Shown here piece after piece: positions 40,501 to 61,978 of a stretch of DNA of 64,000 nt. This DNA is from a plasmid. The notes under the pieces were generated by a model. The model worked only from the letters and a program-made list of their open reading frames with translations, made no database searches and was not told the origin of the DNA. Numbering within the stretch: position 1 is the stretch's first letter; each line of letters starts with the position of its first letter. The stretch is from the sequence record NZ_CP148139.1. One strand, given 5' to 3'. The translations under genes were made by a program, and so were the position numbers.

Positions 40501-40522
40501 AAATAACAGGGATGAATACGGA

Positions 40523-43363: not shown

Positions 43364-43392
43364 AAATGTTCATATTTGAACATTTTTTATGT
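43364..43392. promoter_or_regulatory. Palindromic operator-like site in divergent promoter region
   Basis: aatgttcaTATTtgaacatt inverted repeat. Confidence 0.35.
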
Positions 43393-43435
43393 ATATTAAT
43401 TCCGCAAATTCGCCATAAACACAACAGGAGACACG

Positions 43436-43981
43436 ATGGATATCAACTACTACGATGAACATCAGGAAGAATTTGAGGCGGTTAAACTGGCGCTGAAGGG
43501 CGAAATGGAGAGGATCTGGGGCTCCATGCTGAAAGAACGCGGGGACAATCTGGATGATGAAGCCACGTACCTGAACCTGTTTGAAGAATTGCAGTATAAC
43601 TTCTCTCCGTCCAGTTTCAGTAAGCTCACCCCGGCGCAGGAACTGGATAAAGATAAAATAGCGGCCTTTGTGGCCAGAACCCGCGGCTATAAGCACGGCA
43701 TCACGATCAAATGCCGGCCGGGTCGCCCGCAGAAGTGGCTGAAAGGCCGAATCAAACCACTTGAGGACGCGGAAGGCACAAACCTGTGCTGGATCGACAC
43801 GGCCACCATCGTGCATATCGGTGCCGGTCAGCAGTTTGACGATCAGTATTACCTCACAGTGACCACACAGACCGGGCAGAGTTACCGCGTGAATGAACTC
43901 CGTCTGCCAGGTCGTCTGCTGGAAGCAGCCCAGGACAGCCTGTTCAGGGCACTGGATTCAACCACCGGCGGTTACTTCTGA
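43436..43981 (+). CDS. Hypothetical protein
   Basis: 181 aa; aggag SD. Confidence 0.45.
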   Translation: MDINYYDEHQEEFEAVKLALKGEMERIWGSMLKERGDNLDDEATYLNLFEELQYNFSPSSFSKLTPAQELDKDKIAAFVARTRGYKHGITIKCRPGRPQKWLKGRIKPLEDAEGTNLCWIDTATIVHIGAGQQFDDQYYLTVTTQTGQSYRVNELRLPGRLLEAAQDSLFRALDSTTGGYF

Positions 43982-44133
43982 TAGGGCGTTGCACCACGCT
44001 TATCGGGGATTTATACTCGCAGTGATTAACAGATTAATTTTCCGTTTACTCCGACAGAAAGTTAAGTAATAAAAAGGTCTATAATTAAAAGGCGCCCTTC
44101 CTCACCAGTTGGACGCCTTTTGTGTATGCATCA

Positions 44134-44541
44134 TCAGTTATCTGTAAACCCTGAAAGAAGTGTGATGGACACGTCGTCTTCTTCACGCGCTACCATCACC
44201 GGTACATCCTTCCAGCGTGCCACGTTTTCTCCCCACTTTTGCAGGTCAGCACATGACAGATTGTGCCTCTGACATAACCTCAGAATGGTGTCATTCGAAT
44301 ACCAGTCTATGCGGGACAGGTGTTCACGGATCACCCATTCATCCCACGGCCGGCCGTCAAATGCAGGTTCACGCCGCCGCCATTCCGGATTGTTAATGAC
44401 CAGATAATCGCCAACATAAAGACGGTCGGTCAGCTGATATATATCAACGAAGCCAACCTCACTGTCAGGGATCACTTCCAGGAAGAGATAACCCGCTACG
44501 GGGTGTACCGCGCCCAGAAGCACCATAGGCTGAGTCACCAT
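44134..44541 (-). CDS. Hypothetical protein (3rd gene of a three-gene operon)
   Basis: Start at MVTQPMVLLG overlapping upstream stop (ATGA); ORF track 44134-44610. Confidence 0.4.
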   Translation of the reverse strand: MVTQPMVLLGAVHPVAGYLFLEVIPDSEVGFVDIYQLTDRLYVGDYLVINNPEWRRREPAFDGRPWDEWVIREHLSRIDWYSNDTILRLCQRHNLSCADLQKWGENVARWKDVPVMVAREEDDVSITLLSGFTDN

Positions 44542-44542
44542 G

Positions 44543-45121
44543 TTATTCCCCCTGTTCGTCTTCAGCTGGCCGCCAGGCCCGCTGCCCTTTATAACCCAGT
44601 AGGGCTTCACACATCAGATCGGTTATACGCGCAATCGCGTAATCCGCACTGTCAGCCCGCAGGGAAATCACGGCCGTTTCCCCCCGGTGCGCGGCGTTCC
44701 AGAATCCGGGCAGCAGCGTCTGGAACCGGGCCCGGTCATCCCCCTCCGACAGCAGGGCTGCATCCGGCAGTCGTTCGCGGATCACATCTTCACCGGCCTG
44801 ACGCAGGATATCGTCACGACTCCAGATGCACAGCGTTGCCGGTCCGCTGCGCATGAGGATAGTAGCGGCGTCAGCCATACTCAGAGTATCCAGCTTCAGC
44901 ATCTCCATGCCCGGCCGACGCAGCACGAATCCAATCGGCCGCCGGTACTTGCCCAGCTGCAGCAGATCGTCGTCCGTAAGCAGCTCCAGGCCACGCTGCA
45001 GGACAAGATGCAGTACTTCAGCCTCTTTAATCGGCCGCAGCAGCCCATGCATGGTGTTCGCTTTGACGGTCAGCGCCTCAATGCGATTCCAGAGCTCATC
45101 ATTTATATGTTTGGTGGCCAT
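44543..45121 (-). CDS. Hypothetical protein (2nd gene)
   Basis: ORF track 44543-45157; likely start MATKHINDELW. Confidence 0.4.
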   Translation of the reverse strand: MATKHINDELWNRIEALTVKANTMHGLLRPIKEAEVLHLVLQRGLELLTDDDLLQLGKYRRPIGFVLRRPGMEMLKLDTLSMADAATILMRSGPATLCIWSRDDILRQAGEDVIRERLPDAALLSEGDDRARFQTLLPGFWNAAHRGETAVISLRADSADYAIARITDLMCEALLGYKGQRAWRPAEDEQGE

Positions 45122-45464
45122 CGGAATGCTCCCCGCCAAAATAAAACCGTTTTCCATCCGCTGCTTTGCCCAGGCATACCGTGTGACCCGTGGTTATCTG
45201 GCCGGCATCCATCAGGAACGGCGCGCCCGGACCGCGAAACACGTCCGGAGCGAGGGCAGCAGGTTCGCCGGCAGCGACCGGCCGGACCATGCCCATATCG
45301 TAACTGTCCGGCAGGTTATCCCGCAGGCAGGCCTGCGTGTAGTCGTCCGCGACCTTCTGCGCCTCTTCCTGCGTGGGGTAACGACCCAGCACGCCGGTGA
45401 TCTCTTTCTTCAGTCCGAAGCCGTAGCCGCGAACCTTGTACGCTTCATATTCCATCCCGTTCAC
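45099..45464 (-). CDS. Hypothetical protein (1st gene)
   Basis: 121 aa. Confidence 0.4.
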   Translation of the reverse strand: MNGMEYEAYKVRGYGFGLKKEITGVLGRYPTQEEAQKVADDYTQACLRDNLPDSYDMGMVRPVAAGEPAALAPDVFRGPGAPFLMDAGQITTGHTVCLGKAADGKRFYFGGEHSDGHQTYK

Positions 45465-45982
45465 TCCGCTTGCCGTTGTTTACTGAATAACCATACTCTA
45501 ATAAATTAGGTTTCATGCGTATATTATAAATATTTAGATTTAGCACTAAAAGCTAATTCAATGAAGCGACACACCGGGAATCATCACGCTGCATGACGAC
45601 CGCACGATTTACCCCGCCGGATGATTCGCCCCCTTATCTTTTCACCTTGTGACTTTTACGCCTGCAACCACCGGAAAATACCTTTTCGCCGGTGCCGCCA
45701 TTGCGGAAAAAACGTAAATACCGAAAAAAGCGAAATCAACAGGGAGAGGAAGGCAGGGGGACGGTCGCACGGTTGCCGTGCGCGGGCACCATATCTTGTG
45801 CCGTTCTCAGCTGACGGAGCCACTACATATAGCGTTATCCACAGAAACGGTGGATAAGTGGCGGCGCTGCGGAGAATACCGCTAAACCGCAACGGCGAAA
45901 AAATGTGGTCCCGCGCGCAAAAGTGCGGTACAAATGGCTGTACATTATGTAAAGCCAGATGACTGTACAAAAAGGAAGGAGC

Positions 45983-47170
45983 ATGACCGGTTTTTTTGAA
46001 CGTAAAAAGCGGGCCAAAAACGCCCAGCTGACCGTGCGTCTCGATGAGCAGCTGAAGAAACGCGCCGAACTGCGTCTGGAGGCAATGGGGATGACCGCCA
46101 CGGAAGCGGTGGAGCAGCTTTACCGCTTCATCGCCGATCACGGCCGGATGCCCGTCACGGAGCGTATCGTCACATTTGACATCCAGTCACAGCGCGGCCG
46201 CGCCATCGCCCTCAATCCCGCCGACGCTGTGACCGAAAACACCCGGCGGTTTCTGCAGTCGCTGGGAGCTGTGGAAGTGGTCTGCTGCGATCCCGCTGCA
46301 TTTGAACAGGCGGTACTGGAGTACTTCAGCCTGTATGTGGCCGACCAGGCTGCCTGTTTACTGGCCGGTGTACTGAACGTCACGTTCATGGTTAATGCCG
46401 CCAGTCGCGTGAAAGATGACTGGCATGACAGGCTGCTGTCCCTGTTACAGCGCGACTTTGATTTCAGCGAAGAACAGTCAGTGACGTTCATTAACAGCAT
46501 CGTAGACAGCGAACATGTCGATCCTGCCATCGTCAGTCGAAATAATACGGCCTGGCGGAGCGGAAAAAGCACCGGGTCCGGCGCCGCCGTCCTGCAGCGT
46601 TTCCTGACGTTCCTGGCGGAGCGGGGCGTCAGCTGCAGCGATCCGCAGAGACTGACCGAAAGCGCCGGCCGTGCATGGGGCGTGCGTGAAAATATGATCG
46701 GGAATATGCCCCCGGACATGCAGCAGGCCATAAACGATGGCGTCATTTTTGAGGCCAGCGCTGACACGCCGGACTTTTCCCCTGAGCTGGCGGCGGCGTT
46801 TGGCTTCACACAGGCCCAGGCAGAAGCGGTGCTGAAACCCGCCCTGGCCGCCAGGGATCTCCCCGGTTTCCTGCAGCGCTTTCTGGCGTTCCTGGCCGAC
46901 CGGGGCATCAGCTGCAGCAATCCCCGGCGGTTTACTGAAAAGGTCACTGAACACGCCAGCCATGAGGGGCTGCACCGGCTTATTGCGATGTTGATGTCGC
47001 GCATCAGGGATGAGGGGGTCTGTTTTGTCTTTCACAATGAATCCCCGGACGAACTGCCGCGCCTGGCCGCGTCACTGCCCGGCGAACTGGCCGATACCTT
47101 CGGGTTTACGGGATGGCAGGCAACAACAATACTGCGTCAAATCCAGCCGGCACGGCCGGGGCAGGATTAG
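45983..47170 (+). CDS. Hypothetical protein with N-terminal RHH-like (RelB/ParG-type) segment and an internal ~90-aa tandem duplication
   Basis: aaggaaggag SD; TVRLDEQLKKRAELRLEAMGMTATEAV; duplicated blocks LQRFLTFLAERGVSCSDPQRLTE / LQRFLAFLADRGISCSNPRRFTE each followed by a FGFT(Q/G) motif. Confidence 0.45.
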   Translation: MTGFFERKKRAKNAQLTVRLDEQLKKRAELRLEAMGMTATEAVEQLYRFIADHGRMPVTERIVTFDIQSQRGRAIALNPADAVTENTRRFLQSLGAVEVVCCDPAAFEQAVLEYFSLYVADQAACLLAGVLNVTFMVNAASRVKDDWHDRLLSLLQRDFDFSEEQSVTFINSIVDSEHVDPAIVSRNNTAWRSGKSTGSGAAVLQRFLTFLAERGVSCSDPQRLTESAGRAWGVRENMIGNMPPDMQQAINDGVIFEASADTPDFSPELAAAFGFTQAQAEAVLKPALAARDLPGFLQRFLAFLADRGISCSNPRRFTEKVTEHASHEGLHRLIAMLMSRIRDEGVCFVFHNESPDELPRLAASLPGELADTFGFTGWQATTILRQIQPARPGQD

Positions 47171-47188
47171 GGCCGGGAGCCTCACGCG

Positions 47189-47461
47189 ATGAAAACGACC
47201 TGTTATGCGGACGGCATCACGGCGGCGCCACTTTCCCCGCAGGAGTGGCGGGCACTGCTCAGGGCGAAAGGCTGGAAGCAGAAGGATCTGGCCCGCCGCT
47301 GGAATGTGTCAGAAACCTGGATCAGTAAGCTGGCCAATAACCCCGATCGGGGCACGCACTGGAACGATGCCTGCCGGGGTCTGCCCGATATGCGTGCCCG
47401 GCGGCCCGGCGAACCGCGCGCGGCAGGCACAGACGCACCAGAGCCGGGAGGCCCTGAATGA
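47189..47461 (+). CDS. Hypothetical small protein
   Basis: 90 aa; stop overlaps next start. Confidence 0.35.
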   Translation: MKTTCYADGITAAPLSPQEWRALLRAKGWKQKDLARRWNVSETWISKLANNPDRGTHWNDACRGLPDMRARRPGEPRAAGTDAPEPGGPE

Positions 47462-48141
47462 ACAAACGTCTTCACCTCATCACCACCTGTACCCGGCGCA
47501 AGGCGGGCAGCGTGGAGGATACCGTTTTTCCGGGCGACACTTCCCTTGATGACGCCTTTGACGGCTGGTACAGGCTGATCGCCCAGGCCGCCCGCCGTCC
47601 TGGCAGGGTGCTGGAAACGGGAGAGCTTTACCGGGGCGCACACTGGCTGCGTGCCCGCGGTATCGCGGCGCGGTGGCCGGGCATCGAGCTGTGGGCCATG
47701 TCGGCCGGTCTGGGGCTGCGCCACCATACCGATCCGGCGGTCGCGTATGAGGCAACGTTTCACGCCATGCCCTTCGCGCCGGCGACCGTCTGGGGCTCAC
47801 TGACGGCACGCCCCCCGCTGGCGGGCCGCTGCGCCTCCCTGGCTGAGCTGATGCAACGCTGCCCGGACGATCGCTTTGTGATCGCCGGTTCACCCGTGTA
47901 TATCAGCGCGGCTGAGCAGGATATTCTGGCCGGCGTGCCGGCACTGCATGATGCGGCCGCTCAGCTGATTATCGTGACCTCACAGGGCTATCGTGGTCCG
48001 CTGCAGCCGTTTCTTAAAAGAAGCCGCGCGGACATGATGGCGACCCTGAAATCGAACATGACGTGCCTGAATATTGCCTGCGCCGGCGCCCTGATTGACG
48101 CCATGATGCAGGCAGACGCCCGGCAGGCGGCAACCATTTAA
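47458..48141 (+). CDS. Hypothetical protein
   Basis: 227 aa. Confidence 0.4.
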   Translation: MNKRLHLITTCTRRKAGSVEDTVFPGDTSLDDAFDGWYRLIAQAARRPGRVLETGELYRGAHWLRARGIAARWPGIELWAMSAGLGLRHHTDPAVAYEATFHAMPFAPATVWGSLTARPPLAGRCASLAELMQRCPDDRFVIAGSPVYISAAEQDILAGVPALHDAAAQLIIVTSQGYRGPLQPFLKRSRADMMATLKSNMTCLNIACAGALIDAMMQADARQAATI

Positions 48142-48185
48142 TACAGACAGAGACTGGCGCTACCGTCGCCAGAAGGGGGTTTTAC

Positions 48186-48404
48186 ATGTTCAGCATCATT
48201 TATCACGCCGGCGCAGCCGTCCTTTTCCTGGTCATGAGCCTGGCGGCCGGCGCCGGCCTCCTGCTTCATAGCCATGAATATACGACAGGTCATTTCTGGA
48301 ACATGACGGGGCTGTGCATTGTGTCAACTCTCGTCTGGATCTGGGCTGTAGCTCAGGCAAAAGAAGCCTGGTACATTTCACGAAACATCAAAAAAGGACT
48401 CTGA
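48186..48404 (+). CDS. Small membrane protein
   Basis: 72 aa, 2 TM. Confidence 0.35.
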   Translation: MFSIIYHAGAAVLFLVMSLAAGAGLLLHSHEYTTGHFWNMTGLCIVSTLVWIWAVAQAKEAWYISRNIKKGL

Positions 48405-48406
48405 CC

Positions 48407-48616
48407 ATGAAAGATGAAATTCGCCACGAAAAACCCGTTGAAGTGAATATACAGCTGACACACAGAGAAGCGCAGGCTCTGGCGCAACTGGTTAAGCGTC
48501 TGGGATTCAGTGACTGCCGCGGCCTGGCGACGTCAGATATTGAGGCATATCTGATGATGGATGGAATCAACCAGATCATGAAAGCACTGGCTGAAGAGGG
48601 CTATGCACCACGATAA
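48407..48616 (+). CDS. Small hypothetical protein
   Basis: MKDEIRHEKPVEVNIQL...; ORF track 48314-48616. Confidence 0.3.
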   Translation: MKDEIRHEKPVEVNIQLTHREAQALAQLVKRLGFSDCRGLATSDIEAYLMMDGINQIMKALAEEGYAPR

Positions 48617-48738
48617 GGGCCGGGACTATCTGGAATTAGCCGGAAATACGGCCCTATCACGCGGGCAGTAAGGAGAGGTTTTAATGTTCCCGACACCAGG
48701 GAAAACAAGCCGCCGTCAAGAGCGGCTGCACATCGCTG

Positions 48739-50004
48739 TTATCGCATAAACGCCGCGGGAATATCCTTCCACTGCGTGGTGTAGGCCGGGGACAACATTT
48801 CACGGCGCATGGCATATTCCGGATCAATACCTTCTCCGGCGAAGAAGATCCTTGACCTTCCTTCCCTGTTTATTTTGTCGATGGTGGCCATCAGTTTTTC
48901 GCTGCCCGGCCGCACAGCAGCCGGCGAAAACAGATCCAGCTGGGTTTCATATCCCTGCAGATCGCTGAGCATCACGCCGGCTTTTGCATACCGCACGCCC
49001 TCACGCCAGATACGCGACAGTCCCAGCTGCGCCGCGGCGATGATGTCGCGGGTATCCTGGCTTGGCACGGGAAGCACTTCCGTAGCCTGGTTACTGTAGG
49101 GCACACCGCCGGCGTCATAAGCACTGCTGCGGATAAAGACCGTTACCACCTTCGCCAGACGGTTTTCCTGGCGCAACTTTTCTCCTGCCCGTGTGGCATA
49201 TTTAGTCACCGCCTGCTGCATCTGCGCCAGTTGCGTGACCCGCGATCCAAACGAACGGGATACAACAAGCTGCTGTTTCGCGCCGGTACCTTCTTCCAGG
49301 GCAAAGCAGGCCTCGCCACGCAGCTCACGGATGGTGCGTTCCAGCGTCACACCGTACAGCCGGCGTGCCAGTCGGATATCCATCTCTGCGAGCGCCAGCG
49401 CCGTTTTGATCCCCATTGTCGCCAGCCCTTTTTCGGTACGATGGCCAACCCCCCACACATCGCCGGCCGACACCAGGCTCATCAGCCTTTTCAGTCTTAC
49501 AGGATCACTGAGCGCCACAACCCCCCCGGTGGCAGGCCACGTCTTCGCGGCGTGGTTGCACAGTTTGGCCAGCGTCTTCGTTGGCGCGACGCCGACTCCA
49601 CAGGTGAGCGTTGTCTGGCGCAGCACTTCAGCCCGCAAAAGCTGGCCAAACGCCTGCGGCGTCATCACTCCCTCCATATGAGAGGCATCCGCAAAGAGCT
49701 CATCAATTGAGTAAACAAATGTCCGCGGCGCCAGACTCTCCACCACGGTTGCAAATCTGGCGGAGAATGAGGCGTAAAGGGTGTAGTTGGAACTGAATAC
49801 GGCAACGTTATGCTGTTCCAGCAGGCGGCGGCAGCGGAAATAGGGCTCCCCGCGGCGCACGCCAAGCGCTTTCGCCGCGCGATTGACCGCAACAAGCGCC
49901 CCGTCGTTGTTGCTGAGAACGACCACAGGGCGACCTCGTAAATCAGGGCGGAACGCTTCTTCGCAGCTGCAGTACATCGAATTGACATCGATTAAGGCGT
50001 ACAC
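48739..50004 (-). CDS. mucB: Y-family error-prone DNA polymerase subunit (MucB/UmuC-like)
   Basis: [22 protein letters not shown]...SNNDG...; a GTG start analogous to MFALIDVN of MucB is proposed; the ORF track start 50043 lies inside mucA. Confidence 0.85.
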
Positions 50005-50426
50005 GGGCGGTGTCTCATGACAGTGAACGTAACCACACCCCATATCTGCAGCGCCTCCGGATCAAACCTGATTGGCGGAAAAGCCGGATTCAGCGGCATC
50101 AGGCAGGGGTAAGGGCGGAGCTGCAGCTGCTTGACCGTAAATTCATTATCGATGCTGGCAATCACGATGCTGCCGTGCCGGGGCTCTTCTGCCCGATCGA
50201 CGACCAGCACATCGCCATCATGAATGCGGGCATCACGCATAGAATCGCCGGACACACGCAAGAAGTACGTTGCGGCCGGACGCCGCACGCAGTAATCATG
50301 CAGGTTAAGTTCATTGGCCTCATAGCCTGCGGCCGGGCTGGGAAAGCCGGCCGCAACGGGCTCGGCAAAAAAAGGGAGTGCGTCACCTTCCACTGAAGGC
50401 CGGGGATAAACGAGATCCAGCGCCAT
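49992..50426 (-). CDS. mucA: MucA/UmuD-like S24 peptidase (LexA-like autocleaving)
   Basis: 144 aa; [24 protein letters not shown]...NEFTVKQL. Confidence 0.85.
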
Positions 50427-50518
50427 AATTTAGCCTCCAATAACTGTTTATACATACAGTATATTGCAGGCTTCAGGAAACAGGCAATGCCGGCATATTT
50501 CATGCCGGCACGCTGGGG

Positions 50519-50851
50519 TCAGGTCAGGATGGTGGCCAGACGGCCAAGAACGTCGTCCATGATAGTCTCTGGCACCCGTTCGAGTCGTTTGCCGCCGCGG
50601 GCTTTCATATCGATCGTCCGGGGTTGATCGCAACGCACAACGCCGGTGGTACGTATGCCGGCGCCGTCAAGCGACACAGCAAAGCCTGCTGTGCGGGCAA
50701 AATTGCCTCCGCTGGTCACGGGCACAACAACAGGCAGGCGGGTCACGCGGTTAAAAGCAGCCGGCGTGACAATCAGTACCGGCCGCGTTCCCTGCTGCTC
50801 ATGACCTGCGGTAGGGTCAAGCGAGACAAGCCAGATTTCCCCTCTTTCCAT
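50519..50851 (-). CDS. pemK: PemK/Kid toxin (MazF family)
   Basis: MERGEIWLVSLDPTAGHEQQGTRPVLIVTPAAFNRVTRLPVVVPVTSGGNFARTAGF... (110 aa). Confidence 0.9.
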   Translation of the reverse strand: MERGEIWLVSLDPTAGHEQQGTRPVLIVTPAAFNRVTRLPVVVPVTSGGNFARTAGFAVSLDGAGIRTTGVVRCDQPRTIDMKARGGKRLERVPETIMDDVLGRLATILT

Positions 50852-50852
50852 G

Positions 50853-51110
50853 TCAGATTTCCTCCTGACCAGCCGCCGGCGCATCCAGCCATTCACGTTC
50901 TTCTGCCGAGATTTCAGCGTTCGGATCGCACTGTGCCAACAGCTCAGCCAGTGAATACTGCGGGCGTCTGTGCGGCTCCACAATCAGCCGGCCATTATCA
51001 ATGACCATGCCAACTTCATTATCTGTACCCAGCGACAGCGCATTCAGCAGTGCCGGTGGGACGGTCAGCATGACTGAGCCGCCAACCTTCTTCAGTCGAG
51101 TGGTATGCAT
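50853..51110 (-). CDS. pemI: PemI/Kis antitoxin
   Basis: MHTTRLKKVGGSVMLTVPPALLNALSLGTDNEVGMVIDNGRLIVEP... Confidence 0.9.
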   Translation of the reverse strand: MHTTRLKKVGGSVMLTVPPALLNALSLGTDNEVGMVIDNGRLIVEPHRRPQYSLAELLAQCDPNAEISAEEREWLDAPAAGQEEI

Positions 51111-51201
51111 TTTTCACCTCCATAAAAGTTATATTTAAATATAACATTCACAAAAAAACATACCAGCCTTTAACGCACAATATTTAATAAAAATATAACT
51201 T

Positions 51202-51427
51202 TCAGCCCAACAGTAAACCCAGCGCGGTAGCTTCCATATGCAGCAATACCGGCAGCAGCAGGCCGCCACTTCTGATCCGGGCAGCTGATGTAATCAGCCC
51301 CACCAGGAACATTTCTGCCAGGGTCAGCAGGTTCTGATACTGCATATGCACGGCGGCAAACAGCAAAGACGTTATCAGCGCGCCCAGCCACATCGTCCAG
51401 TTGTACCTCGAACGGAAGACGTTCAGC
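51202..51427 (-). pseudogene. 3' fragment of a CPBP (CAAX/Abi) intramembrane protease-family gene truncated by IS1999; may be the tir remnant of pOXA-48-like plasmids
   Basis: LFAAVHMQY...LVGLITSAARIRSGGLLLPVLLHMEATA; abuts the IS1999 end at 51428. Confidence 0.4.
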
Positions 51428-52755
51428 ACTGAAGGATCCCCTCATAAATCAGCCATAGCATAGCCATATTTGAGCAACTGATTGGCGAATAATACCCAGG
51501 CCGCCAGCAATTCTTTCTCCGTGATTTGATAATCAGGCCGCCTGAGTACCTCCAATCCCAAGCGAATCGTTGAGAGTACCGTTCGATGCCCAATGGTATT
51601 GGCCTGAAAATGCTTATCCCAGCCCTGTTGCTGTGCGTGTAAACCAACTAGCCACAACAGGCATTGAACCATCAACGCTATCAGTAGGATGATGTCGAAT
51701 CGCTCTGGACTGTTGGTACGACTTTGGCGTAAGCCAAAGCCGTATGCCGGGCTTTTGAGGTCACGAAAGGTTTCCTCTATTTGCATACGTTTGGCGTACA
51801 GGTTTACCAGCTGCTTTGGGCTCCGAGATTCTGGTGGTAAATTGCTGGCTAACACCCAAGGCTCTTTCGCCGATGTTGAGTACGTTTTTGCCGATGGATG
51901 GTGGCAATTAGTCCTCGTTGAACGCTGATTTGTACGCCCCTTAGGTTTGCTACGATAAAGCGTGAGATGGCAATTGATAGGGTTAGTTTTGGTCAAAGTC
52001 TTACAACCCAGGCTCTTCGCTTGACCGTTGGCCAAGTCATGTGTACTTCGAACTGCACGCCAATTTTCAGCGCCAATATCTGCAAATTGAACTGTACCGC
52101 GAATACGGCTTAGCCAAAACCAACCATGCGCCTCAACCTCTTTGTACCAAGGCACTTTGAACCCCGCGTCAGTCACGATGAGAGGGGTAACATGCAAAGG
52201 TAAAATCTTGGCTAAGTCCGCTAAAAAACCGTTGTGGGAGGCCTTAGAGCATTGTTCTGATAGGGGATAGGACTTCTCATACAGGGTAATAGAGCGGCCA
52301 TTGAAGGCTATTGAGGCGCGCAGAGCCATGATGCGTTTATGCTCTCGGATGTCTGACCAATCGACGAGCACAATCGGCATAGGGTTACCAGAACAGATGA
52401 GGCTGGCATGCCATTGGTAGACAGCTAACCGTTCTTGATGCAGATGCGTGTTGCCGAGCAAACGATCAATGCGCTTGATGTTGTGCTTGGTTCGGGCCGT
52501 GGTTGGTAAATTTCGACCTAACTCAGTCAAGGTCAGTGTCTTACATTCAATCAGCGCCTTAGAGGCCAGCATCAAGCTGTTTAATCGTTTTAGGTGAAGT
52601 TCTGGGCAGTATTGGTGTAAAGAATGTTGTAGGATATTGGCTTCGCGCATCTTGTTGTCCAAGTGTAGTTTTTGGCGAAACCATTTGATCATGCAACAAG
52701 ATGCGCTTCCACCCTAATTTGATGATTTATTTGTAAATCATCAGGGGATTCTTCA
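51428..52755 (-). mobile_element. IS1999 (IS4 family, IS10-like), 1,328 bp, Tn1999 copy downstream of lysR
   Basis: Terminal IRs CTGAAG(G/A)ATCCCCT...; transposase about 70-80% like the IS10 Tnp as recalled. Confidence 0.8.
51442..52650 (-). CDS. tnpA: IS1999 transposase (IS4 family)
   Basis: MREANILQHSLHQYCPELHLKRLNSLMLASKALIECKTLTLTELGRNLP... (402 aa from the internal start). Confidence 0.85.
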   Translation of the reverse strand: MREANILQHSLHQYCPELHLKRLNSLMLASKALIECKTLTLTELGRNLPTTARTKHNIKRIDRLLGNTHLHQERLAVYQWHASLICSGNPMPIVLVDWSDIREHKRIMALRASIAFNGRSITLYEKSYPLSEQCSKASHNGFLADLAKILPLHVTPLIVTDAGFKVPWYKEVEAHGWFWLSRIRGTVQFADIGAENWRAVRSTHDLANGQAKSLGCKTLTKTNPINCHLTLYRSKPKGRTNQRSTRTNCHHPSAKTYSTSAKEPWVLASNLPPESRSPKQLVNLYAKRMQIEETFRDLKSPAYGFGLRQSRTNSPERFDIILLIALMVQCLLWLVGLHAQQQGWDKHFQANTIGHRTVLSTIRLGLEVLRRPDYQITEKELLAAWVLFANQLLKYGYAMADL

Positions 52756-52952
52756 GTGCTCGGCCTGTAAAAAAAGCGGATCGGGCGTTTGGGCTTGAGT
52801 CATGTGTTTGGGCTGATTATTGCTGGTCATCAAAAGATCCTCTGCTTTAGCCTCTGAAAATTTTTAGCCAATAAATATAACTTTGTTATCCCGCCAAATG
52901 CCATTAAACTGCATAAGACGCTATGTTCCAAATATGAGACAGTGGGAAAAAC

Positions 52953-53864
52953 ATGCCAGATTTAAACGGTATGATGCTATTTGCAGCCGTAGTGAGAGCA
53001 AAGGGATTCTCCCAAGCTGCACGTGAAACCGGCCACCCAAAATCCACCATAAGTCGCAAAATCGCGCAGCTTGAAGAACAACTAGGCGTGCGATTGTTAC
53101 AACGCGACACCCGTAACCTGAGTCTTACCCAAGTCGGGGCACTCTTTTATCAACACTGTGATTCCATTCGCAATGAGGTGGAAGCGGCCAAGGCTGTTAT
53201 CGAGAGTACCCATGATGATGTATCAGGATCATTACGGATAGCCATTCCGGTCTCTTTTAGCCAAGAATTAATTGCTAACCTCTGTAGCGGATTCATGCGT
53301 TTATATCCCAATGTGGAATTAGATGTCCAGTTTACCGACAACGATATAGGTTTGGTGGGTGAAGGATATGACATAGCTATCAAATATGGGCCACTGCAAT
53401 CCTCTGATCTTGTTGCAAGATTACTGTTCGAGCGTCAACCAATTCTGGTAGCAAGCCCTGGCTATTTAAAAGCACGCGGCACCCCCGCAACACCTAAGGA
53501 GCTGAGCGATCATAGTGGTATTCTGCTAGGAACATCCCGCTCAGCACCCATATGGCCCTTAGGCAAAGGTGCTCGCAAAACCATGGTAAACTTTCAGCGT
53601 AAAGTCAGGGTCAATAGCCCGATTATGGTTAAGCAGTTAGCCCTCGATGACTTTGGGATTGCAATGCTATCAAACTCCGCCTGCAAAACCGAACTCGCCA
53701 ACGGCCAGCTAGTGCCAATCTTACAGGAATGGCCGATTGAACCCTTTAAGGTCTACGGGGTGTATTCGAGCCGCAGACAATTAGCCACCAATATCAGCGC
53801 CTTCTTGGACTTTTTCGTCAAACGCTTTAGCAGCCAAGAAAGCCTACAATCCTTGATGGGCTAG
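52953..53864 (+). CDS. lysR: LysR-family transcriptional regulator (Tn1999 lysR)
   Basis: 303 aa; N-terminal HTH MPDLNGMMLFAAVVRAKGFSQAARETGHPKSTISRKIAQLEE. Confidence 0.85.
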   Translation: MPDLNGMMLFAAVVRAKGFSQAARETGHPKSTISRKIAQLEEQLGVRLLQRDTRNLSLTQVGALFYQHCDSIRNEVEAAKAVIESTHDDVSGSLRIAIPVSFSQELIANLCSGFMRLYPNVELDVQFTDNDIGLVGEGYDIAIKYGPLQSSDLVARLLFERQPILVASPGYLKARGTPATPKELSDHSGILLGTSRSAPIWPLGKGARKTMVNFQRKVRVNSPIMVKQLALDDFGIAMLSNSACKTELANGQLVPILQEWPIEPFKVYGVYSSRRQLATNISAFLDFFVKRFSSQESLQSLMG

Positions 53865-54165
53865 GCACTTTATCGCAGCGGCATTCACCTTTACTGACAT
53901 CGCCATTCCTTTATACACATCCCAATGTTGAGTGACCATGACCATTTAGATAACAAAAAAGCCTAGCAAATTGGCTAGGCTTTTTACGTTGAGGAATGTG
54001 ATGCTAATGCTCAGGCTAAAAGTTAACGCGCGGAGCTTAAGTCGATTAGGCCTAACCGATTAAGTATGAGCCATTAACTACAAGCGCATCGAGCATCAGC
54101 ATTTTGTCCATATATCTTTACAGCTTATATGACGGCTATTTCACACAAATACGCGCTAACCACTT

Positions 54166-54963
54166 CTAGGGAATAATTTTTTCCTGTTTGAGCACTTCTT
54201 TTGTGATGGCTTGGCGCAGCCCTAAACCATCCGATGTGGGCATATCCATATTCATCGCAAAAAACCACACATTATCATCAAGTTCAACCCAACCGACCCA
54301 CCAGCCAATCTTAGGTTCGATTCTAGTCGAGTATCCAGTTTTAGCCCGAATAATATAGTCACCATTGGCTTCGGTCAGCATGGCTTGTTTGACAATACGC
54401 TGGCTGCGCTCCGATACGTGTAACTTATTGTGATACAGCTTTCTTAAAAAGCTGATTTGCTCCGTGGCCGAAATTCGAATACCACCGTCGAGCCAGAAAC
54501 TGTCTACATTGCCCGAAATGTCCTCATTACCATAATCGAAAGCATGTAGCATCTTGCTCATACGTGCCTCGCCAATTTGGCGGGCAAATTCTTGATAAAC
54601 AGGCACAACTGAATATTTCATCGCGGTGATTAGATTATGATCGCGATTCCAAGTGGCGATATCGCGCGTCTGTCCATCCCACTTAAAGACTTGGTGTTCA
54701 TCCTTAACCACGCCCAAATCGAGGGCGATCAAGCTATTGGGAATTTTAAAGGTAGATGCGGGTAAAAATGCTTGGTTCGCCCGTTTAAGATTATTGGTAA
54801 ATCCTTGCTGCTTATTCTCATTCCAGAGCACAACTACGCCCTGTGATTTATGTTCAGTAAAGTGAGCATTCCAACTTTTGTTTTCTTGCCATTCCTTTGC
54901 TACCGCAGGCATTCCGATAATCGATGCCACCAAAAACACAGCCGATAAGGCTAATACACGCAT
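54166..54963 (-). CDS. blaOXA-48: Class D carbapenemase OXA-48 (OXA-48-like; residues T104, N110, E168, S171, T213, R214 all as in OXA-48)
   Basis: 265 aa MRVLALSAVFLVASIIGMPAVAKEWQENKSWNAHFTEHKSQGVVVLWNENKQQGFTNNLKRANQAFLPASTFKIPNSLIALDLGVVKDEHQVFKWDGQTRDIATWNRDHNL...YSTRIEPKIGWWVGWVEL... Confidence 0.95.
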   Translation of the reverse strand: MRVLALSAVFLVASIIGMPAVAKEWQENKSWNAHFTEHKSQGVVVLWNENKQQGFTNNLKRANQAFLPASTFKIPNSLIALDLGVVKDEHQVFKWDGQTRDIATWNRDHNLITAMKYSVVPVYQEFARQIGEARMSKMLHAFDYGNEDISGNVDSFWLDGGIRISATEQISFLRKLYHNKLHVSERSQRIVKQAMLTEANGDYIIRAKTGYSTRIEPKIGWWVGWVELDDNVWFFAMNMDMPTSDGLGLRQAITKEVLKQEKIIP

Positions 54964-54989
54964 AACGTCCCCTTGCTTAATGCAATATA

Positions 54990-55127
54990 CTGAAGAATCC
55001 CCTGATGATTTACAAATAAATCATCAAATTAGGGTGGAAGCGCATCTTGTTGCATGATCAAATGGTTTCGCCAAAAACTACACTTGGACAACAAGATGCG
55101 CGAAGCCAATATCCTACAACATTCTTG
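54990..55127 (+). mobile_element. IS1999 remnant (138 bp of the left end, inverted relative to the complete copy), 26 bp upstream of blaOXA-48, truncated by IS1
   Basis: Reverse complement of 52618-52755. Confidence 0.85.
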
Positions 55128-55181
55128 GTGATGCTGCCAACTTACTGATTTAGTGTATGATGGTGTTTTTGAGGTGCTCCA

Positions 55182-55457
55182 GTGGCTTCTGTTTCTATCA
55201 GCTGTCCCTCCTGTTCAGCTACTGACGGGGTGGTGCGTAACGGCAAAAGCACCGCCGGACATCAGCGCTATCTCTGCTCTCACTGCCGTAAAACATGGCA
55301 ACTGCAGTTCACTTACACCGCTTCTCAACCCGGTACGCACCAGAAAATCATTGATATGGCCATGAATGGCGTTGGATGCCGGGCAACCGCCCGCATTATG
55401 GGCGTTGGCCTCAACACGATTTTCCGCCATTTAAAAAACTCAGGCCGCAGTCGGTAA
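55182..55457 (+). CDS. insA: IS1 InsA
   Basis: [40 protein letters not shown]. Confidence 0.9.
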
Positions 55458-55879
55458 CCTCGCGCATACAGCCGGGCAGTGACGTCATCGTCTGCGCGGA
55501 AATGGACGAACAGTGGGGATACGTCGGGGCTAAATCGCGCCAGCGCTGGCTGTTTTACGCGTATGACAGGCTCCGGAAGACGGTTGTTGCGCACGTATTC
55601 GGTGAACGCACTATGGCGACGCTGGGGCGTCTTATGAGCCTGCTGTCACCCTTTGACGTGGTGATATGGATGACGGATGGCTGGCCGCTGTATGAATCCC
55701 GCCTGAAGGGAAAGCTGCACGTAATCAGCAAGCGATATACGCAGCGAATTGAGCGGCATAACCTGAATCTGAGGCAGCACCTGGCACGGCTGGGACGGAA
55801 GTCGCTGTCGTTCTCAAAATCGGTGGAGCTGCATGACAAAGTCATCGGGCATTATCTGAACATAAAACACTATCAATAA
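55376..55879 (+). CDS. insB: IS1 InsB (expressed as the InsAB' fusion by -1 frameshift)
   Basis: ...[47 protein letters not shown]... Confidence 0.9.
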
Positions 55880-55952
55880 GTTGGAGTCATTACCCCCCGG
55901 ACGAGTGGGAATCCATGGTAGGGATTTTTACCGAAATGGAAGAACACTATTA

Positions 55953-55990
55953 GGGGGCACCTCAGAAAACGGAAAATAAAGCACGCTAAG
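55953..55990. repeat. Tn21-family 38-bp terminal inverted repeat at the mer end (IRmer)
   Basis: GGGGGCACCTCAGAAAACGGAAAATAAAGCACGCTAAG. Confidence 0.85.
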
Positions 55991-56420
55991 GCATAGCTGA
56001 CCTTGCCAGGCCTGCTTCGCCCTGTAGTGACGCGATCAACGGGCAGGAAACATTCCCCTTTCGTGCATGGCAGGCGCACACGAGTTCAGACAGCACGGTT
56101 TCCATGCGCGCCAAGTCGGCCATCTTCTCGCGCACGTCCTTGAGCTTGTGTTCGGCCAGGCTGCTGGCCTCCTCGCAGTGGGTGCCATCGTCGAGCCGCA
56201 ACAGCTCGGCAATCTCGTCCAGACTGAACCCCAGCCGCTGTGCCGATTTCACGAATTTCACCCGAACCACGTCCGCCTCCCCATAGCGGCGGATGCTGCC
56301 GTAAGGCTTGTCCGGTTCCCGCAACAGGCCCTTGCGCTGATAGAAGCGGATTGTCTCCACGTTGACCCCGGCCGCCTTGGCAAAAACGCCAATGGTCAGG
56401 TTTTCCAAATTATTTTCCAT
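55986..56420 (-). CDS. merR: MerR mercuric-resistance regulator
   Basis: 144 aa [33 protein letters not shown]... Confidence 0.9.
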
Positions 56421-56491
56421 ATCGCTTGACTCCGTACATGAGTACGGAAGTAAGGTTACGCTATCCAATCCAAATTCAAAAGGGCCAACGT

Positions 56492-56842
56492 ATGTCTGAA
56501 CCACAAAACGGGCGCGGTGCGCTCTTCGCCGGCGGGCTGGCCGCCATTCTTGCATCGACCTGCTGCCTGGGGCCGCTAGTACTGGTCGCCCTGGGCTTCT
56601 CCGGTGCTTGGATCGGCAACCTGACGGTGCTGGAACCCTATCGACCGTTGTTCATCGGCGCGGCGCTAGTGGCGCTGTTCTTCGCCTGGAAGCGGATTTA
56701 CCGGCCCGTGCAGGCATGCAAGCCAGGTGAGGTCTGCGCGATTCCGCAGGTGCGCGCCACCTACAAGCTGATTTTCTGGATCGTGGCCGTGCTGGTCCTG
56801 GTCGCGCTTGGATTTCCCTATGTCGTTCCATTTTTCTATTAA
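56492..56842 (+). CDS. merT: MerT mercuric transport protein
   Basis: [40 protein letters not shown]... Confidence 0.9.
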
Positions 56843-56855
56843 CCAGGAGTTCATC

Positions 56856-57131
56856 ATGAAGAAACTGTTTGCCTCCCTTGCCCTCGCCGCCGCTGTTGCC
56901 CCGGTGTGGGCCGCTACCCAGACCGTCACGCTAGCGGTTCCCGGCATGACTTGCGCCGCCTGCCCGATCACAGTCAAGAAAGCGCTCTCCAAGGTCGAAG
57001 GCGTGAGCAAGGTCGATGTGGGCTTCGAGAAGCGCGAGGCCGTCGTCACTTTTGACGACACCAAGGCCAGCGTACAGAAGCTGACCAAGGCCACCGCAGA
57101 CGCCGGCTATCCGTCCAGCGTCAAGCAGTGA
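56856..57131 (+). CDS. merP: MerP periplasmic Hg(II)-binding protein
   Basis: MKKLFASLALAAAVAPVWAATQTVTLAVPGMTCAACPITVKKAL. Confidence 0.9.
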   Translation: MKKLFASLALAAAVAPVWAATQTVTLAVPGMTCAACPITVKKALSKVEGVSKVDVGFEKREAVVTFDDTKASVQKLTKATADAGYPSSVKQ

Positions 57132-57166
57132 GCCAGCAAGCCAACGACAACAGCGAGAGCCGCTTC

Positions 57167-57589
57167 ATGGGACTGATGACACGCATTGCCGATAAAACCG
57201 GCGCGCTCGGCAGCGTCGTTTCCGCGATGGGCTGCGCCGCCTGCTTTCCAGCCCTCGCCAGCTTCGGCGCGGCCATCGGGCTGGGCTTCTTGAGCCAGTA
57301 CGAGGGACTGTTCATCAGCCGCCAGCTGCCGCTGTTTGCCGCGCTGGCCTTCCTGGCGAACGCGCTGGGTTGGTTCAGTCATCGGCAATGGCTGCGCAGT
57401 CTGCTCGGCATGATCGGCCCGGCCATCGTGTTTGCGGCCACGGTCTGGCTGCTCGGCAACTGGTGGACGGCGAACCTGATGTACGTCGGCCTGGCCTTGA
57501 TGATTGGGGTGTCGATCTGGGACTTCGTGTCGCCGGCGCATCGCCGTTGCGGACCGGACGGCTGCGAACTCCCCGCCAAGCGCTTGTGA
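57167..57589 (+). CDS. merC: MerC
   Basis: MGLMTRIADKTGALGSVVSAMGCAACFPALASFGAAIGL... Confidence 0.85.
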   Translation: MGLMTRIADKTGALGSVVSAMGCAACFPALASFGAAIGLGFLSQYEGLFISRQLPLFAALAFLANALGWFSHRQWLRSLLGMIGPAIVFAATVWLLGNWWTANLMYVGLALMIGVSIWDFVSPAHRRCGPDGCELPAKRL

Positions 57590-59335
<1,746 letters not shown>

Positions 59336-59352
59336 GGACAAGGAGGTGTGCG

Positions 59353-59715
59353 ATGAGCGCCTACACGGTATCGCAACTGGCCCATAACGCTGGGGTGAGC
59401 GTACATATCGTGCGCGACTACCTGGTGCGCGGCTTGTTACGGCCGGTGGCCTGCACCACGGGCGGCTACGGCGTGTTCGACGATGCGGCCTTGCAACGGC
59501 TGTGCTTCGTGCGCGCGGCCTTCGAGGCGGGTATCGGCCTGGATGCCCTGGCGCGGCTGTGCCGTGCGCTCGACGCAGCGGACGGCGCACAAGCCGCAGC
59601 GCAGCTTGCCGTGCTGCGCCAGTTGGTCGAGCGGCGGCGCGCGGCGTTGGCCCATCTGGACGCGCAACTGGCCTCCATGCCAGCCGAGCGGGCGCACGAG
59701 GAGGCATTGCCGTGA
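59353..59715 (+). CDS. merD: MerD co-regulator
   Basis: [35 protein letters not shown]... Confidence 0.85.
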
Positions 59716-59948
59716 ACGCCCCTGACAAACTGCCGCCCGAGACGCGCCAACCCGTTTCCGGCTACCTGTGGGGTGCGCTGGCCGTGTTGACCTGCCCCTG
59801 CCATCTGCCGATTCTCGCCGCCGTGCTGGCCGGGACGACCGCCGGTGCCTTCCTTGGCGAGCATTGGGGTGTTGCCGCGCTCGCGCTGACCGGCTTGTTC
59901 GTTCTGGCCGTAACGCGGCTGCTGCGCGCCTTCCGGGGCGGATCATGA
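59712..59948 (+). CDS. merE: MerE (GTG start)
   Basis: (V)[48 protein letters not shown]... 78 aa. Confidence 0.8.
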
Positions 59949-60652
59949 CGAGTTCGCAGCCCGCCGGATGGACGGCGGCCGAGTTGGCGCAGGCGGCGGC
60001 GCGCGGACAGCTTGACCTGCATTACCAGCCGCTGGTCGATCTGCGCGATCACCGGATCGCTGGCGCGGAAGCGTTGATGCGCTGGCGGCATCCGAGGCTT
60101 GGCCTGTTGCCGCCCGGCCAGTTCCTGCCGCTGGCCGAGTCGTTCGGCCTGATGCCGGAAATAGGCGCGTGGGTGCTGGGCGAGGCCTGTCGCCAGATGC
60201 ACAAGTGGCAAGGACCGGCATGGCAACCGTTCCGTCTTGCCATCAATGTGTCCGCCAGCCAGGTTGGGCCAACGTTCGACGACGAGGTAAAGCGGGTGCT
60301 GGCCGATATGGCCCTGCCCGCCGAGCTTCTGGAGATCGAACTGACCGAATCGGTCGCATTCGGCAATCCAGCCCTGTTCGCCAGTTTCGACGCCTTGCGC
60401 GCCATCGGCGTGCGCTTCGCCGCCGACGACTTCGGCACCGGCTATTCCTGCCTGCAACATCTGAAATGCTGCCCCATCACCACATTGAAAATCGACCAAT
60501 CCTTTGTCGCCAGGCTCCCGGATGATGCCCGTGACCAAACTATCGTGCGGGCGGTGATCCAGCTCGCGCACGGGCTGGGCATGGATGTCATTTTCAGAAG
60601 ACGACTGCACCAGTTGATTGGGCGTAATGGCTGTTGTGCAGCCAGCTCCTGA
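59945..60652 (+). CDS. urf2: urf2 (EAL-domain protein of Tn21-family mer modules)
   Basis: [50 protein letters not shown]...; the ORF track gives a longer upstream alternative start. Confidence 0.75.
   Translation: MTSSQPAGWTAAELAQAAARGQLDLHYQPLVDLRDHRIAGAEALMRWRHPRLGLLPPGQFLPLAESFGLMPEIGAWVLGEACRQMHKWQGPAWQPFRLAINVSASQVGPTFDDEVKRVLADMALPAELLEIELTESVAFGNPALFASFDALRAIGVRFAADDFGTGYSCLQHLKCCPITTLKIDQSFVARLPDDARDQTIVRAVIQLAHGLGMDVIFRRRLHQLIGRNGCCAASS
60587..60611. repeat. IRt-like 25-bp inverted repeat of a Tn402/In2 tni module
   Basis: TGTCATTTTCAGAAGACGACTGCAC. Confidence 0.7.
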
Positions 60653-60726
60653 CAGTTCAATATCAGAAGTGATCTGCACCAATCTCGACTATGCTCAATA
60701 CTCGTGTGCACCAAAGCGAGGTGAGC

Positions 60727-61978
60727 ATGGCGACGGACACCCCACGGATTCCAGAACAAGGCGTGGCCACTCTGCCTGATGAGGCTTGGGAGCGTGCGCG
60801 CCGTCGTGCGGAGATCATCAGTCCGTTGGCGCAGTCGGAGACGGTCGGGCACGAAGCGGCCGATATGGCGGCTCAGGCGCTGGGCTTGTCTCGGCGCCAG
60901 GTATACGTTCTGATCCGGCGTGCCCGGCAAGGCAGCGGCCTCGTGACGGATCTGGTGCCCGGCCAGTCCGGTGGAGGTAAAGGTAAGGGGCGCTTGCCGG
61001 AACCGGTCGAGCGCGTCATCCACGAGCTACTGCAAAAGCGGTTCCTGACCAAGCAGAAGCGCAGCCTAGCGGCCTTTCACCGCGAAGTCACTCAGGTGTG
61101 CAAGGCTCAAAAACTGCGAGTGCCGGCGCGCAATACCGTGGCCTTACGGATCGCTAGCCTTGACCCGCGCAAGGTCATCCGCCGGCGGGAAGGCCAGGAT
61201 GCCGCTCGTGACCTACAAGGTGTGGGCGGCGAGCCTCCTGCCGTGACCGCGCCGCTGGAGCAGGTGCAGATAGACCATACGGTCATCGACCTGATCGTGG
61301 TCGATGACCGCGACCGGCAACCTATTGGCCGCCCGTACCTGACCCTCGCCATCGACGTGTTCACCCGCTGCGTGCTCGGCATGGTCGTCACGCTGGAAGC
61401 GCCGTCTGCCGTTTCGGTTGGCCTGTGCCTCGTGCATGTCGCCTGCGACAAGCGCCCTTGGCTGGAAGGACTGAACGTGGAAATGGATTGGCAGATGAGC
61501 GGCAAGCCCTTGCTGCTCTACCTAGACAACGCGGCCGAGTTCAAGAGCGAGGCCCTGCGCCGGGGTTGCGAGCAGCATGGCATCCGGCTGGACTATCGCC
61601 CGCTGGGACAGCCGCACTATGGCGGCATCGTGGAACGGATCATCGGCACGGCGATGCAGATGATTCACGACGAACTGCCGGGAACGACCTTCTCCAACCC
61701 TGACCAGCGCGGCGACTACGATTCCGAAAACAAGGCCGCCCTGACGCTGCGCGAGCTAGAGCGCTGGCTCACATTGGCGGTCGGCACCTACCACGGTTCG
61801 GTGCACAACGGCCTGCTCCAACCGCCGGCCGCGCGCTGGGCCGAGGCCGTGGCGCGTGTCGGCGTACCGGCCGTCGTCACACGCGCTACTTCGTTCCTGG
61901 TCGATTTTCTGCCGATCCTCCGGCGCACGCTGACCCGCACCGGCTTTGTCATCGACCACATCCACTACTACGCCGATG
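60727..61978 (+). pseudogene. tniA: tniA (Tn402-family DDE transposase), 3'-truncated by IS26
   Basis: MATDTPRIPEQGVATLPDEAWERARRRAEIISPLAQSETVGHEAADMAAQALGLSRRQVYVLIRRARQG...; 417 aa then the IS26 IR. Confidence 0.85.

Follow-up and report, generated by a model that had tools for sequence, protein, structure and literature searches.

A blaOXA-48–IS1–Tn21 junction in a mosaic multiresistance plasmid, very probably formed by recombination between identical IS1R copies

The plasmid sequence record NZ_CP148139.1 was analysed over a stretch of 64,000 nucleotides (the window), in which a Tn1999-type blaOXA-48 module is joined, through one copy of the insertion sequence (IS) IS1, to the mer end of transposon Tn21. 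Our sequence comparisons make it very probable that this IS1 (IS1R; 55127-55894, 768 bp, + strand, both terminal repeats exact) is the product of homologous recombination between two identical 768-bp IS1R elements, the likely parents being the IS1 of a Tn1999.2-type module and the IS1 that flanks Tn21 in the resistance determinant (r-determinant) of Tn2670/R100 (NR1) type. The feature is an ordinary IS-mediated junction that arose from identical IS copies in a multiresistance plasmid, and not a new kind of element.

On the left side, IS1 lies at the canonical Tn1999.2 site and in the canonical orientation within the upstream IS1999. Positions 49000-55894 matched the Lebanese IncL plasmid pKP112 (NZ_LN864819), which carries an intact, annotated Tn1999.2, at 100.000%, and the junction, in which ...CCTACAACATTCTT meets GGTGATGCTGCC, is the same base for base in both sequences, as the initial annotation had recognised when it described IS1 as inserted in the manner of Tn1999.2. 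The upstream IS1999 is represented by its outer end, inverted relative to the complete copy (54990-55126, + strand), which ends in AACATTCTT on the left side of IS1; its length is 137 bp and not the 138 bp first given, a value that BLAST also reaches by way of one fortuitous base. In pKP112, IS1 has AACATTCTT on both sides, followed by the remaining 1.2 kb of IS1999, while in the window IS1 is flanked by AACATTCTT, the Tn1999.2 target duplication, on the left and by CCCCGGACG on the right. A 9-bp IS1 target site duplication was looked for at both IS1 flanks and none was found; AACATTCTT stands on the IS1999 side only, as had been anticipated, and the intact duplication named beforehand as counter-evidence was not seen. 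Pattern searches detected a single IS1 left repeat and a single right repeat within the 64-kb window.

On the right side, IS1 is followed by a 58-bp linker (55895-55952, + strand, ending in TATTA) and then by the 38-bp Tn21 inverted repeat IRmer (55953-55990, + strand; an exact match, where none was expected by chance), so that the earlier description of this side, as unrelated DNA leading into IRmer, stands. The linker gave no match to IS1999, and the contrary possibility raised with that description, that it was IS1999 sequence after all, is not borne out. The linker alone corresponds to positions 1-58 of R100 at 100%, and the linker with IRmer to R100 positions 1-126 (126/126), where position 1 directly follows IS1b; the comparison with R100/NR1 that had been proposed identified the IS1b-Tn21 junction. 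Over a longer distance, 55895-61978 corresponds to R100 1-6084 with one mismatch. At the IRtnp end of Tn21 in R100 stand TATTA, the remainder of a GNAT acetyltransferase gene, catA1 and IS1a. Because TATTA and the rest of the GNAT gene are found past IRtnp, the linker is read as the IS1b-proximal end of ybjA, the GNAT gene of Tn9/Tn2670, plus the 5-bp Tn21 target duplication TATTA. The outer flank of IS1b in R100 reads ...TTTTAAACAGGGA up to the boundary and GGTGATGC beyond it. The IS1-linker-IRmer junction was present in at least 359 PLSDB plasmids at ~100% identity, and the IS1-to-IS26 block (55127-62798, 7,672 bp) was 99.97-99.99% colinear with several unrelated chromosome-sized contigs and plasmids; the fusion product of truncated TniA and IS26 was listed in 4,327 collection blocks.

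The IS1 in the window was identical (768/768) to the IS1 of Tn1999.2 in pKP112 and to both IS1a and IS1b of R100, and copies so alike offer a perfect substrate for recombination. Since each of the two junctions pre-exists independently, the left in Tn1999.2 plasmids and the right in Tn2670 derivatives, the crossover is placed inside IS1; a new transposition or deletion is an unlikely source, because it would make a junction at an arbitrary nucleotide and not copy one that is decades old. The proposal in the initial annotation of recombination between the IS1 of Tn1999.2 and a Tn21-flanking IS1 of a Tn2670/NR1-type r-determinant is supported by the R100 match and by the identity of the IS1 copies. 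The first parent would be the blaOXA-48-proximal IS1 of a truncated Tn1999.2 on an IncL plasmid resembling pOXA-48-PM or pKp_Goe_208-2, bordered on its left-repeat side by the IS1999 remnant and blaOXA-48 and on its right-repeat side by a truncated trbC-like gene. The second would be the IS1b-equivalent of a widespread Tn2670-derived block, in which IS1 is followed by the truncated ybjA (ybjA'), Tn21 from mer to a truncated tniA, and IS26. Exchange between these would yield a product with blaOXA-48, the IS1999 remnant and an IS1-borne -35 element on one side and ybjA', IRmer and mer on the other. Repeat-mediated rearrangement of this region has precedents: an inverted 4.5-kb blaOXA-48 region and a proposed recombination between IS1999 copies are described in PMC11096173, and pOXA-48-PM segments that begin at the IS1R beside blaOXA-48 have been found integrated without target duplications (PMC11123474).

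The whole 30-kb stretch 25821-55894, including the blaOXA-48 module, is colinear with the IncL plasmid pKp_Goe_208-2 (CP018449). In pKp_Goe_208-2 the blaOXA-48-proximal IS1 abuts a truncated trbC-like backbone gene and not IS1999. Because the remainder of IS1999 is already absent in this closest IncL relative, comparison of the two sequences suggests that it was lost before the Tn21 junction arose, and the view that a Tn21 end replaced the rest of IS1999 is probably incorrect. The junction of IS1 with truncated trbC also accompanies the IS26/excA junction described below in an independent assembly (GCA_030336015.1), which speaks against the same view.

A second IncL fragment, in the orientation opposite to that of the blaOXA-48 segment, lies at the far end of the window. 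This replication-region segment (62799-64000, + strand) comprises excA without its first 40 bp, repC (63486-63716, with a RepC_IncLM match) and the repA leader region, and corresponds to pKp_Goe_208-2 positions 64222-65423 at 100%. Given this fragment, the molecule probably carries an IncL replicon beside that of a MOBH plasmid, and may be a multi-replicon fusion. The fragment is joined to the Tn21 piece by an IS26 (61979-62798, - strand) that connects truncated tniA to truncated excA. An exact product match to the truncated ExcA retrieved the contig JAPZYA010000036.1 of GCA_030336015.1 (4,455 bp, four samples), which begins with 77 bp of IS26, continues through an excA junction identical to that in the window (ACAATGCG) and 4.3 kb of IncL replication DNA to the truncated trbC-like gene, and finishes with 77 bp from the right-repeat end of IS1. 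The lineage-specific IS26/excA junction is thus present in at least four other samples, and a scan of GTDB representative genomes for it returned none.

In the most economical course of events that we can infer, IS26 at the truncated tniA would have fused a Tn2670-bearing replicon to the IncL plasmid within excA, leaving two IS1 copies in inverted orientation; recombination between these would then have inverted the ~11.2-kb segment that they enclose, consisting of the Tn21 piece, IS26 and the IncL genes excA-repC-repA-dqlB-trbC'. Under this model the sequence past the window would continue with repA, dqlB and trbC' and then an inverted IS1 at ~67.1 kb, at a junction where ...GTTCGCGCCGCG meets GGTAATGACTCC. 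A second, inverted IS1 ~3.1 kb past the window end is also suggested by JAPZYA010000036.1, because there the replication segment is followed by trbC' and then by an IS1 end. The same IS1 x IS1 recombination could equally have been intermolecular, with the crossover in IS1 producing a cointegrate and an inversion-mode transposition of IS26 into excA subsequently flipping the IncL replication segment, or, as a further variant, with a double crossover through IS1 on one side and IS26 on the other. We regard this other route as a substantial possibility, although short of an even chance. It would give exactly the arrangement seen, with IS26 abutting truncated excA and the replication segment inverted, and the IS26 junctions in the window, which have no matching 8-bp duplications, indicate several IS26 events. 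On the other hand, the reverse-complement duplication that it predicts beside another IS26 (CGCATTGT) is absent from the window, and the window contains nothing that separates the cointegrate route from inversion. The two-step routes are equally economical and both need homologous recombination between IS1 copies. The sequence itself shows the identity of the two junctions and of the IS1 copies, the lack of a target duplication and the inverted IncL segment; the order of events and the second IS1 past the window are inferred.

Several points weigh against recombination between IS1 copies as the origin of the junction, or limit how precisely it can be described. The IS1 copies have no distinguishing bases, so the crossover point cannot be mapped within them; neither the second IS1 nor the reciprocal junction was observed in this molecule, both falling outside the window; JAPZYA010000036.1 fits the un-inverted isomer equally well; and RecA dependence of the IS1 exchange is assumed. 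PLSDB, the complete Escherichia coli genomes and the fetched loci offered no record of the complete hybrid with which to compare the window: the exact arrangement blaOXA-48-IS1-ybjA'-Tn21 was absent from 72,556 PLSDB plasmids and from 5,426 complete E. coli genomes, and none of the 45 fetched loci held both junctions together. Exact-protein look-ups with OXA-48, the truncated-TniA/IS26 fusion and a backbone protein supplied comparators, among which no contig had the two junctions. In an 8-kb BLAST search, pKP112 was the only PLSDB record covering both sides, and the Tn1999.2 junction itself was found in none of the GTDB representative genomes. The same absence from the public records searched (PLSDB and the complete E. 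coli genomes) would be expected if the junction were an assembly artefact or an isomer left unresolved, in which the assembler took a wrong path through two identical inverted IS1 copies around ~11 kb and the real or dominant molecule has the parental junctions, namely blaOXA-48-IS1-truncated trbC and, separately, some flank joined through IS1 to ybjA'-Tn21. The isomers differ only by an inversion, and short-read assemblies do break at these repeats, JAPZYA010000036.1 stopping 77 bp inside IS26 at one end and 77 bp inside IS1 at the other. However, the sequence of the window runs unbroken through four copies of IS26, one of IS1 and a little over one of IS1999, which implies assembly from long reads or by a hybrid approach, where spanning a 768-bp repeat is easy, and its flanks are otherwise error-free, with identities of 100% and 99.98%; an artefact is therefore improbable in our judgement. 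The main residual uncertainty is whether the junction is the sole or dominant isomer, since an assembler could mis-route across identical inverted IS1 copies.

Explanations in which IS1 itself moved are less probable still. An adjacent deletion mediated by IS1, the alternative offered in the initial annotation, or an intramolecular replicative transposition would have the IS1 of Tn1999.2 strike a site 58 bp outside a Tn21 already inserted nearby in the pOXA-48 plasmid and remove the rest of IS1999 together with the intervening backbone. A Tn21 does lie only 3.3 kb from Tn1999.2 in the pOXA-48 backbone of pKP112, an IS1-associated deletion seems to have happened in the lineage, given that IS1 abuts the truncated trbC-like gene in pKp_Goe_208-2, and such an event would leave the one-sided lack of a target duplication that was observed. 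Yet the Tn21 of pKP112 occupies another target, its flank ending in ...GGACTAAAGA immediately before GGGGG, and has no 58-bp linker; the linker in the window is ybjA of Tn9/Tn2670 and not IncL backbone; and no pOXA-48-type record was found that had intact Tn1999.2 with ybjA::Tn21 downstream and without an adjacent IS1. A new deletion end-point, moreover, would have to coincide to the nucleotide with the IS1b site of R100 and of the 359 or more other plasmids, which makes this explanation very improbable. With its Tn21 at a different backbone site and lacking the linker, pKP112 was rejected as an ancestor by way of IS1 deletion. The region of that plasmid concerned (14494-15261 and onward), with an independent Tn21 in the IncL backbone, mimics the window in BLAST summaries but is unrelated to the junction. 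Fresh transposition, in the form of a Tn6237-like composite or a single-ended IS1 unit with blaOXA-48 landing beside Tn21, or of the IS1b of Tn2670 entering IS1999, is the least credible of the explanations considered. Tn6237 has the blaOXA-48-proximal IS1 as an active end, which inserts at many sites (PMC11096173), and such insertions were seen at chromosomal loci (L008-L015). However, the window has a single IS1 without a 9-bp duplication, both of its junctions match long-established ones found independently in thousands of records, and it is implausible that insertion should have happened twice, independently, at one nucleotide and in one orientation. Recombination between IS1R copies thus remains the reading that we prefer.

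The remainder of the blaOXA-48 module was as first described, two boundaries in the region being moved by one base. The complete IS1999 is present and occupies 51429-52756 (1,328 bp, - strand), one base away from the placement originally given (51428-52755); its terminal repeats were read directly and located by pattern search, it is 100% identical to the copy in pKP112, and its transposase open reading frame (ORF; 51442-52692, - strand) matched the IS4-family transposase model. Outside it stands a truncated CAAX/Rce1-like protease gene (51202..51428, - strand; an ORF of 75 amino acids), a backbone gene broken by Tn1999, and the identical ORF adjoins IS1999 at other blaOXA-48 loci. The lysR-family regulator gene of Tn1999 (52953-53864, + strand; LysR-family matches, and a LysR annotated at the corresponding position of pKP112), blaOXA-48 (54166-54963, - strand) and the 26-bp spacer (54964-54989) were all present as claimed, by direct reading, ORF listing and pattern searches. 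The blaOXA-48 product scored 629 bits against the NCBIfam OXA-48 family model (cut-off 580), and the gene is identical in DNA sequence to that annotated as OXA-48 in pKP112. A consensus scan placed a promoter-like site over the IS1/IS1999 junction, facing blaOXA-48 (55111..55140, - strand), as a sigma-70-like arrangement of a -35 element TTGGCA in the left repeat of IS1, an 18-nucleotide spacer and a -10 element TAGGAT in the IS1999 remnant (55116-55111). The earlier remark that IS1 may supply a hybrid promoter for blaOXA-48 agrees with this predicted site and with the likeness of the IS1999-remnant/IS1 junction to that of Tn1999.2. In PMC9807924, which cites Carrër 2008, the IS1R insertion of Tn1999.2 is credited with a strong hybrid promoter and higher enzymatic activity. 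Because the promoter-bearing junction is identical to that of Tn1999.2, the expression signals of blaOXA-48 should be unchanged relative to that element.

Comparison with Tn1999.2 showed the downstream IS1999, lysR, blaOXA-48, the 26-bp spacer, the IS1999 remnant and the point and orientation of the IS1 insertion to be identical, whereas the window is without the other 1.2 kb of the upstream IS1999 and without AACATTCTT to the right of IS1, the right end of IS1 meeting Tn2670 DNA instead. With only 137 bp of the upstream copy, blaOXA-48 and lysR are not bracketed by two IS1999 elements, nor is IS1R flanked on both sides by AACATTCTT, as in Tn1999.2 proper. The window does hold all that defines truncated Tn1999.2 in PMC9807924, in the form of IS1R, the IS1999 remnant, blaOXA-48, lysR and an intact IS1999, with unrelated DNA past IS1R. 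Truncated Tn1999.2 (IS1R-blaOXA-48-lysR-IS1999) has been reported on IncFIA(HI1)/IncR, IncC and IncHI1B plasmids (PMC9807924). The statement that the junction was not recognised as a named Tn1999 variant needs correction: the configuration has a name, truncated Tn1999.2, while the exact hybrid is absent from PLSDB and from the complete E. coli genomes. Truncated Tn1999.2 and the pOXA-48-PM-derived segments in the PmGRI1 islands of Proteus mirabilis share with the window the blaOXA-48-proximal IS1R as boundary, a setting in a foreign replicon or island and the lack of target duplications (PMC9807924, PMC11123474), and pOXA-48-PM has the cargo genes blaCTX-M-14, aph(3')-VI and strAB in common with it. 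The window differs from these in the Tn2670 ybjA'-Tn21 junction past IS1R and in its pPrY2001-like host backbone. One structure described in PMC11123474 also holds parts of an R100-like IncFII plasmid, and a related 'IncM' plasmid, pOXA-P10, is described in the same paper; the window could belong to one of these structures or to a relative. The R100-like IncFII plasmid pS21EC_A, considered as a possible source, was rejected since it leaves no space for an IS1 beside merR.

With the r-determinant of Tn2670/R100 (IS1a-catA1-ybjA::Tn21-IS1b) the window shares IS1, the linker, TATTA, IRmer and the course from mer through urf2 to tniA, with one mismatch in 6,084 bp, so that the arrangement of IS1b, 58 bp of ybjA and IRmer with TATTA is found in full. 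The complete structure is not: Tn21 stops at 61978, where IS26 cuts tniA and is followed by IncL DNA, a common derivative; In2, tnpAR, IRtnp, catA1 and IS1a are not in the window; and the outer flank of IS1 is IS1999/blaOXA-48 and not R100 backbone. What is retained of Tn21 (55953..61978, + strand) comprises IRmer, merR (55986-56420, - strand), merTPCADE, urf2 and the truncated tniA, MerR and MerA both exceeding their NCBIfam cut-offs, whereas the tni remnant, In2, tnpM/R/A and IRtnp of an intact transposon are cut off by the IS26 at 61979. Tn6237 is presented in PMC11096173 as an IS1R-bounded composite transposon of 21.5-21.9 kb with blaOXA-48, and on that description it uses the same blaOXA-48-proximal IS1R as a boundary. 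It differs in that it transposes and leaves 9-bp duplications. The window has no such duplication and no pair of IS1R copies around blaOXA-48 and ~20 kb of pOXA-48 backbone, the other side of its IncL segment being IS26. As the 64 kb hold a single IS1, which lacks a duplication and whose right flank existed beforehand, the junction is recombinational, unlike Tn6237. Recombination of inverted identical IS copies around blaOXA-48 is also the basis of inverted Tn1999.2 and of the IS-repeat inversions of pOXA-48 (PMC11096173, PMC11123474), but the published cases flip the blaOXA-48 module, whereas the segment flipped here would comprise the IncL replication region along with IS26 and the Tn21 piece, between two IS1 copies.

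The rest of the window is a mosaic. Its first part (1..23960) is a pPrY2001-like conjugative backbone of MOBH/MPF_F type with traD, mobH, an integrase gene, parAG, mazEF and an hcp gene cut by IS26. Positions 1-23962 were 99.9% identical to 104.8-kb MOBH/MPF_F plasmids of rep_cluster_1506 and 98.8% identical to the Providencia rettgeri sequence NC_022589, which we take to be pPrY2001; the MOBH relaxase, TraD, the F-type mating-pair backbone and the high identity place the backbone in the pPrY2001-like MOBH family, whose replication gene falls outside the window. Backbones of this kind are typical of Proteus, Providencia and Moellerella, and the hcp/IS26 junction occurs at exactly the same position in the tet(X)-bearing Proteus mirabilis plasmid pNUITM-VP1_1. 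A Tn4352-like unit of IS26, aph(3')-Ia and IS26 follows (23961..26640), with identical IS26 copies in the same orientation at 23961-24780 and 25821-26640 and an aph(3')-Ia ORF (24868-25683) above the NCBIfam APH(3')-Ia cut-off. The IncL segment of pOXA-48-PM/pKp_Goe_208-2 type (25821..51428) carries strA, a strB remnant, aph(3')-VI, ISPa14 (IS1 family), IS26 (31661-32480), blaCTX-M-14 (32662-33537, NCBIfam match), IncL backbone genes, umuDC and pemIK, its resistance genes being backed by NCBIfam matches. Its colinear match to CP018449 had an identity of 99.97% over 20.8 kb and of 99.5% over the 5.4 kb that follow, the lower value falling at 46579-51999 (27 mismatches and an ~80-bp gap near 46586). 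Since 46579-51999 is only 99.5% identical to pKp_Goe_208-2, against 100% identity of 49000-55894 to pKP112, different pOXA-48 sublineages may have recombined to give the IncL segment itself. A direct duplication of ~1 kb (26846-27854 and 30128-31136), made up of strA and the strB remnant, brackets ISPa14 and aph(3')-VI, as in pKp_Goe_208-2, and ISPa14 is too diverged from IS1R for its ends to match the IS1 terminal repeat at ≤3 mismatches. The window holds four identical IS26 copies (23961-24780, 25821-26640, 31661-32480 and 61979-62798), two per orientation, the last being opposite to the first two. Matching 8-bp duplications were sought at all four copies and none was found; for this reason all the IS26 junctions of the window are recombinant, which fits repeated reshuffling by IS26.

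Mechanistically the junction is routine, identical IS copies serving as portable homology by which resistance modules are joined, and truncated Tn1999.2 with an IS1R boundary has already been documented in plasmids of several types and in genomic islands of Proteus. The blaOXA-48-IS1-merR junction could serve as a simple polymerase chain reaction marker, of roughly 1.0-1.3 kb, for tracking the lineage; short-read assemblies will break at the IS1 junction, where the isomers are indistinguishable. In this arrangement blaOXA-48 retains an intact Tn1999.2-type promoter region and has become linked to blaCTX-M-14, three aph genes and mer. The conjugative backbone that carries them is of Morganellaceae type and also keeps repC and the beginning of the repA region from IncL. 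In Morganellaceae, OXA-48 easily escapes phenotypic detection (PMC11123474). Tentatively, the molecule may be an undescribed fusion of a pPrY2001-like Morganellaceae plasmid with a pOXA-48-PM-type IncL replication region and 30 kb of its cargo, in which two inverted IS1R copies flank an invertible cassette of ~11 kb (Tn21 mer, IS26 and IncL repA/repC); the junction would then be one of two interconverting isomers and a marker of blaOXA-48 and blaCTX-M-14 spreading into Proteus and Providencia.

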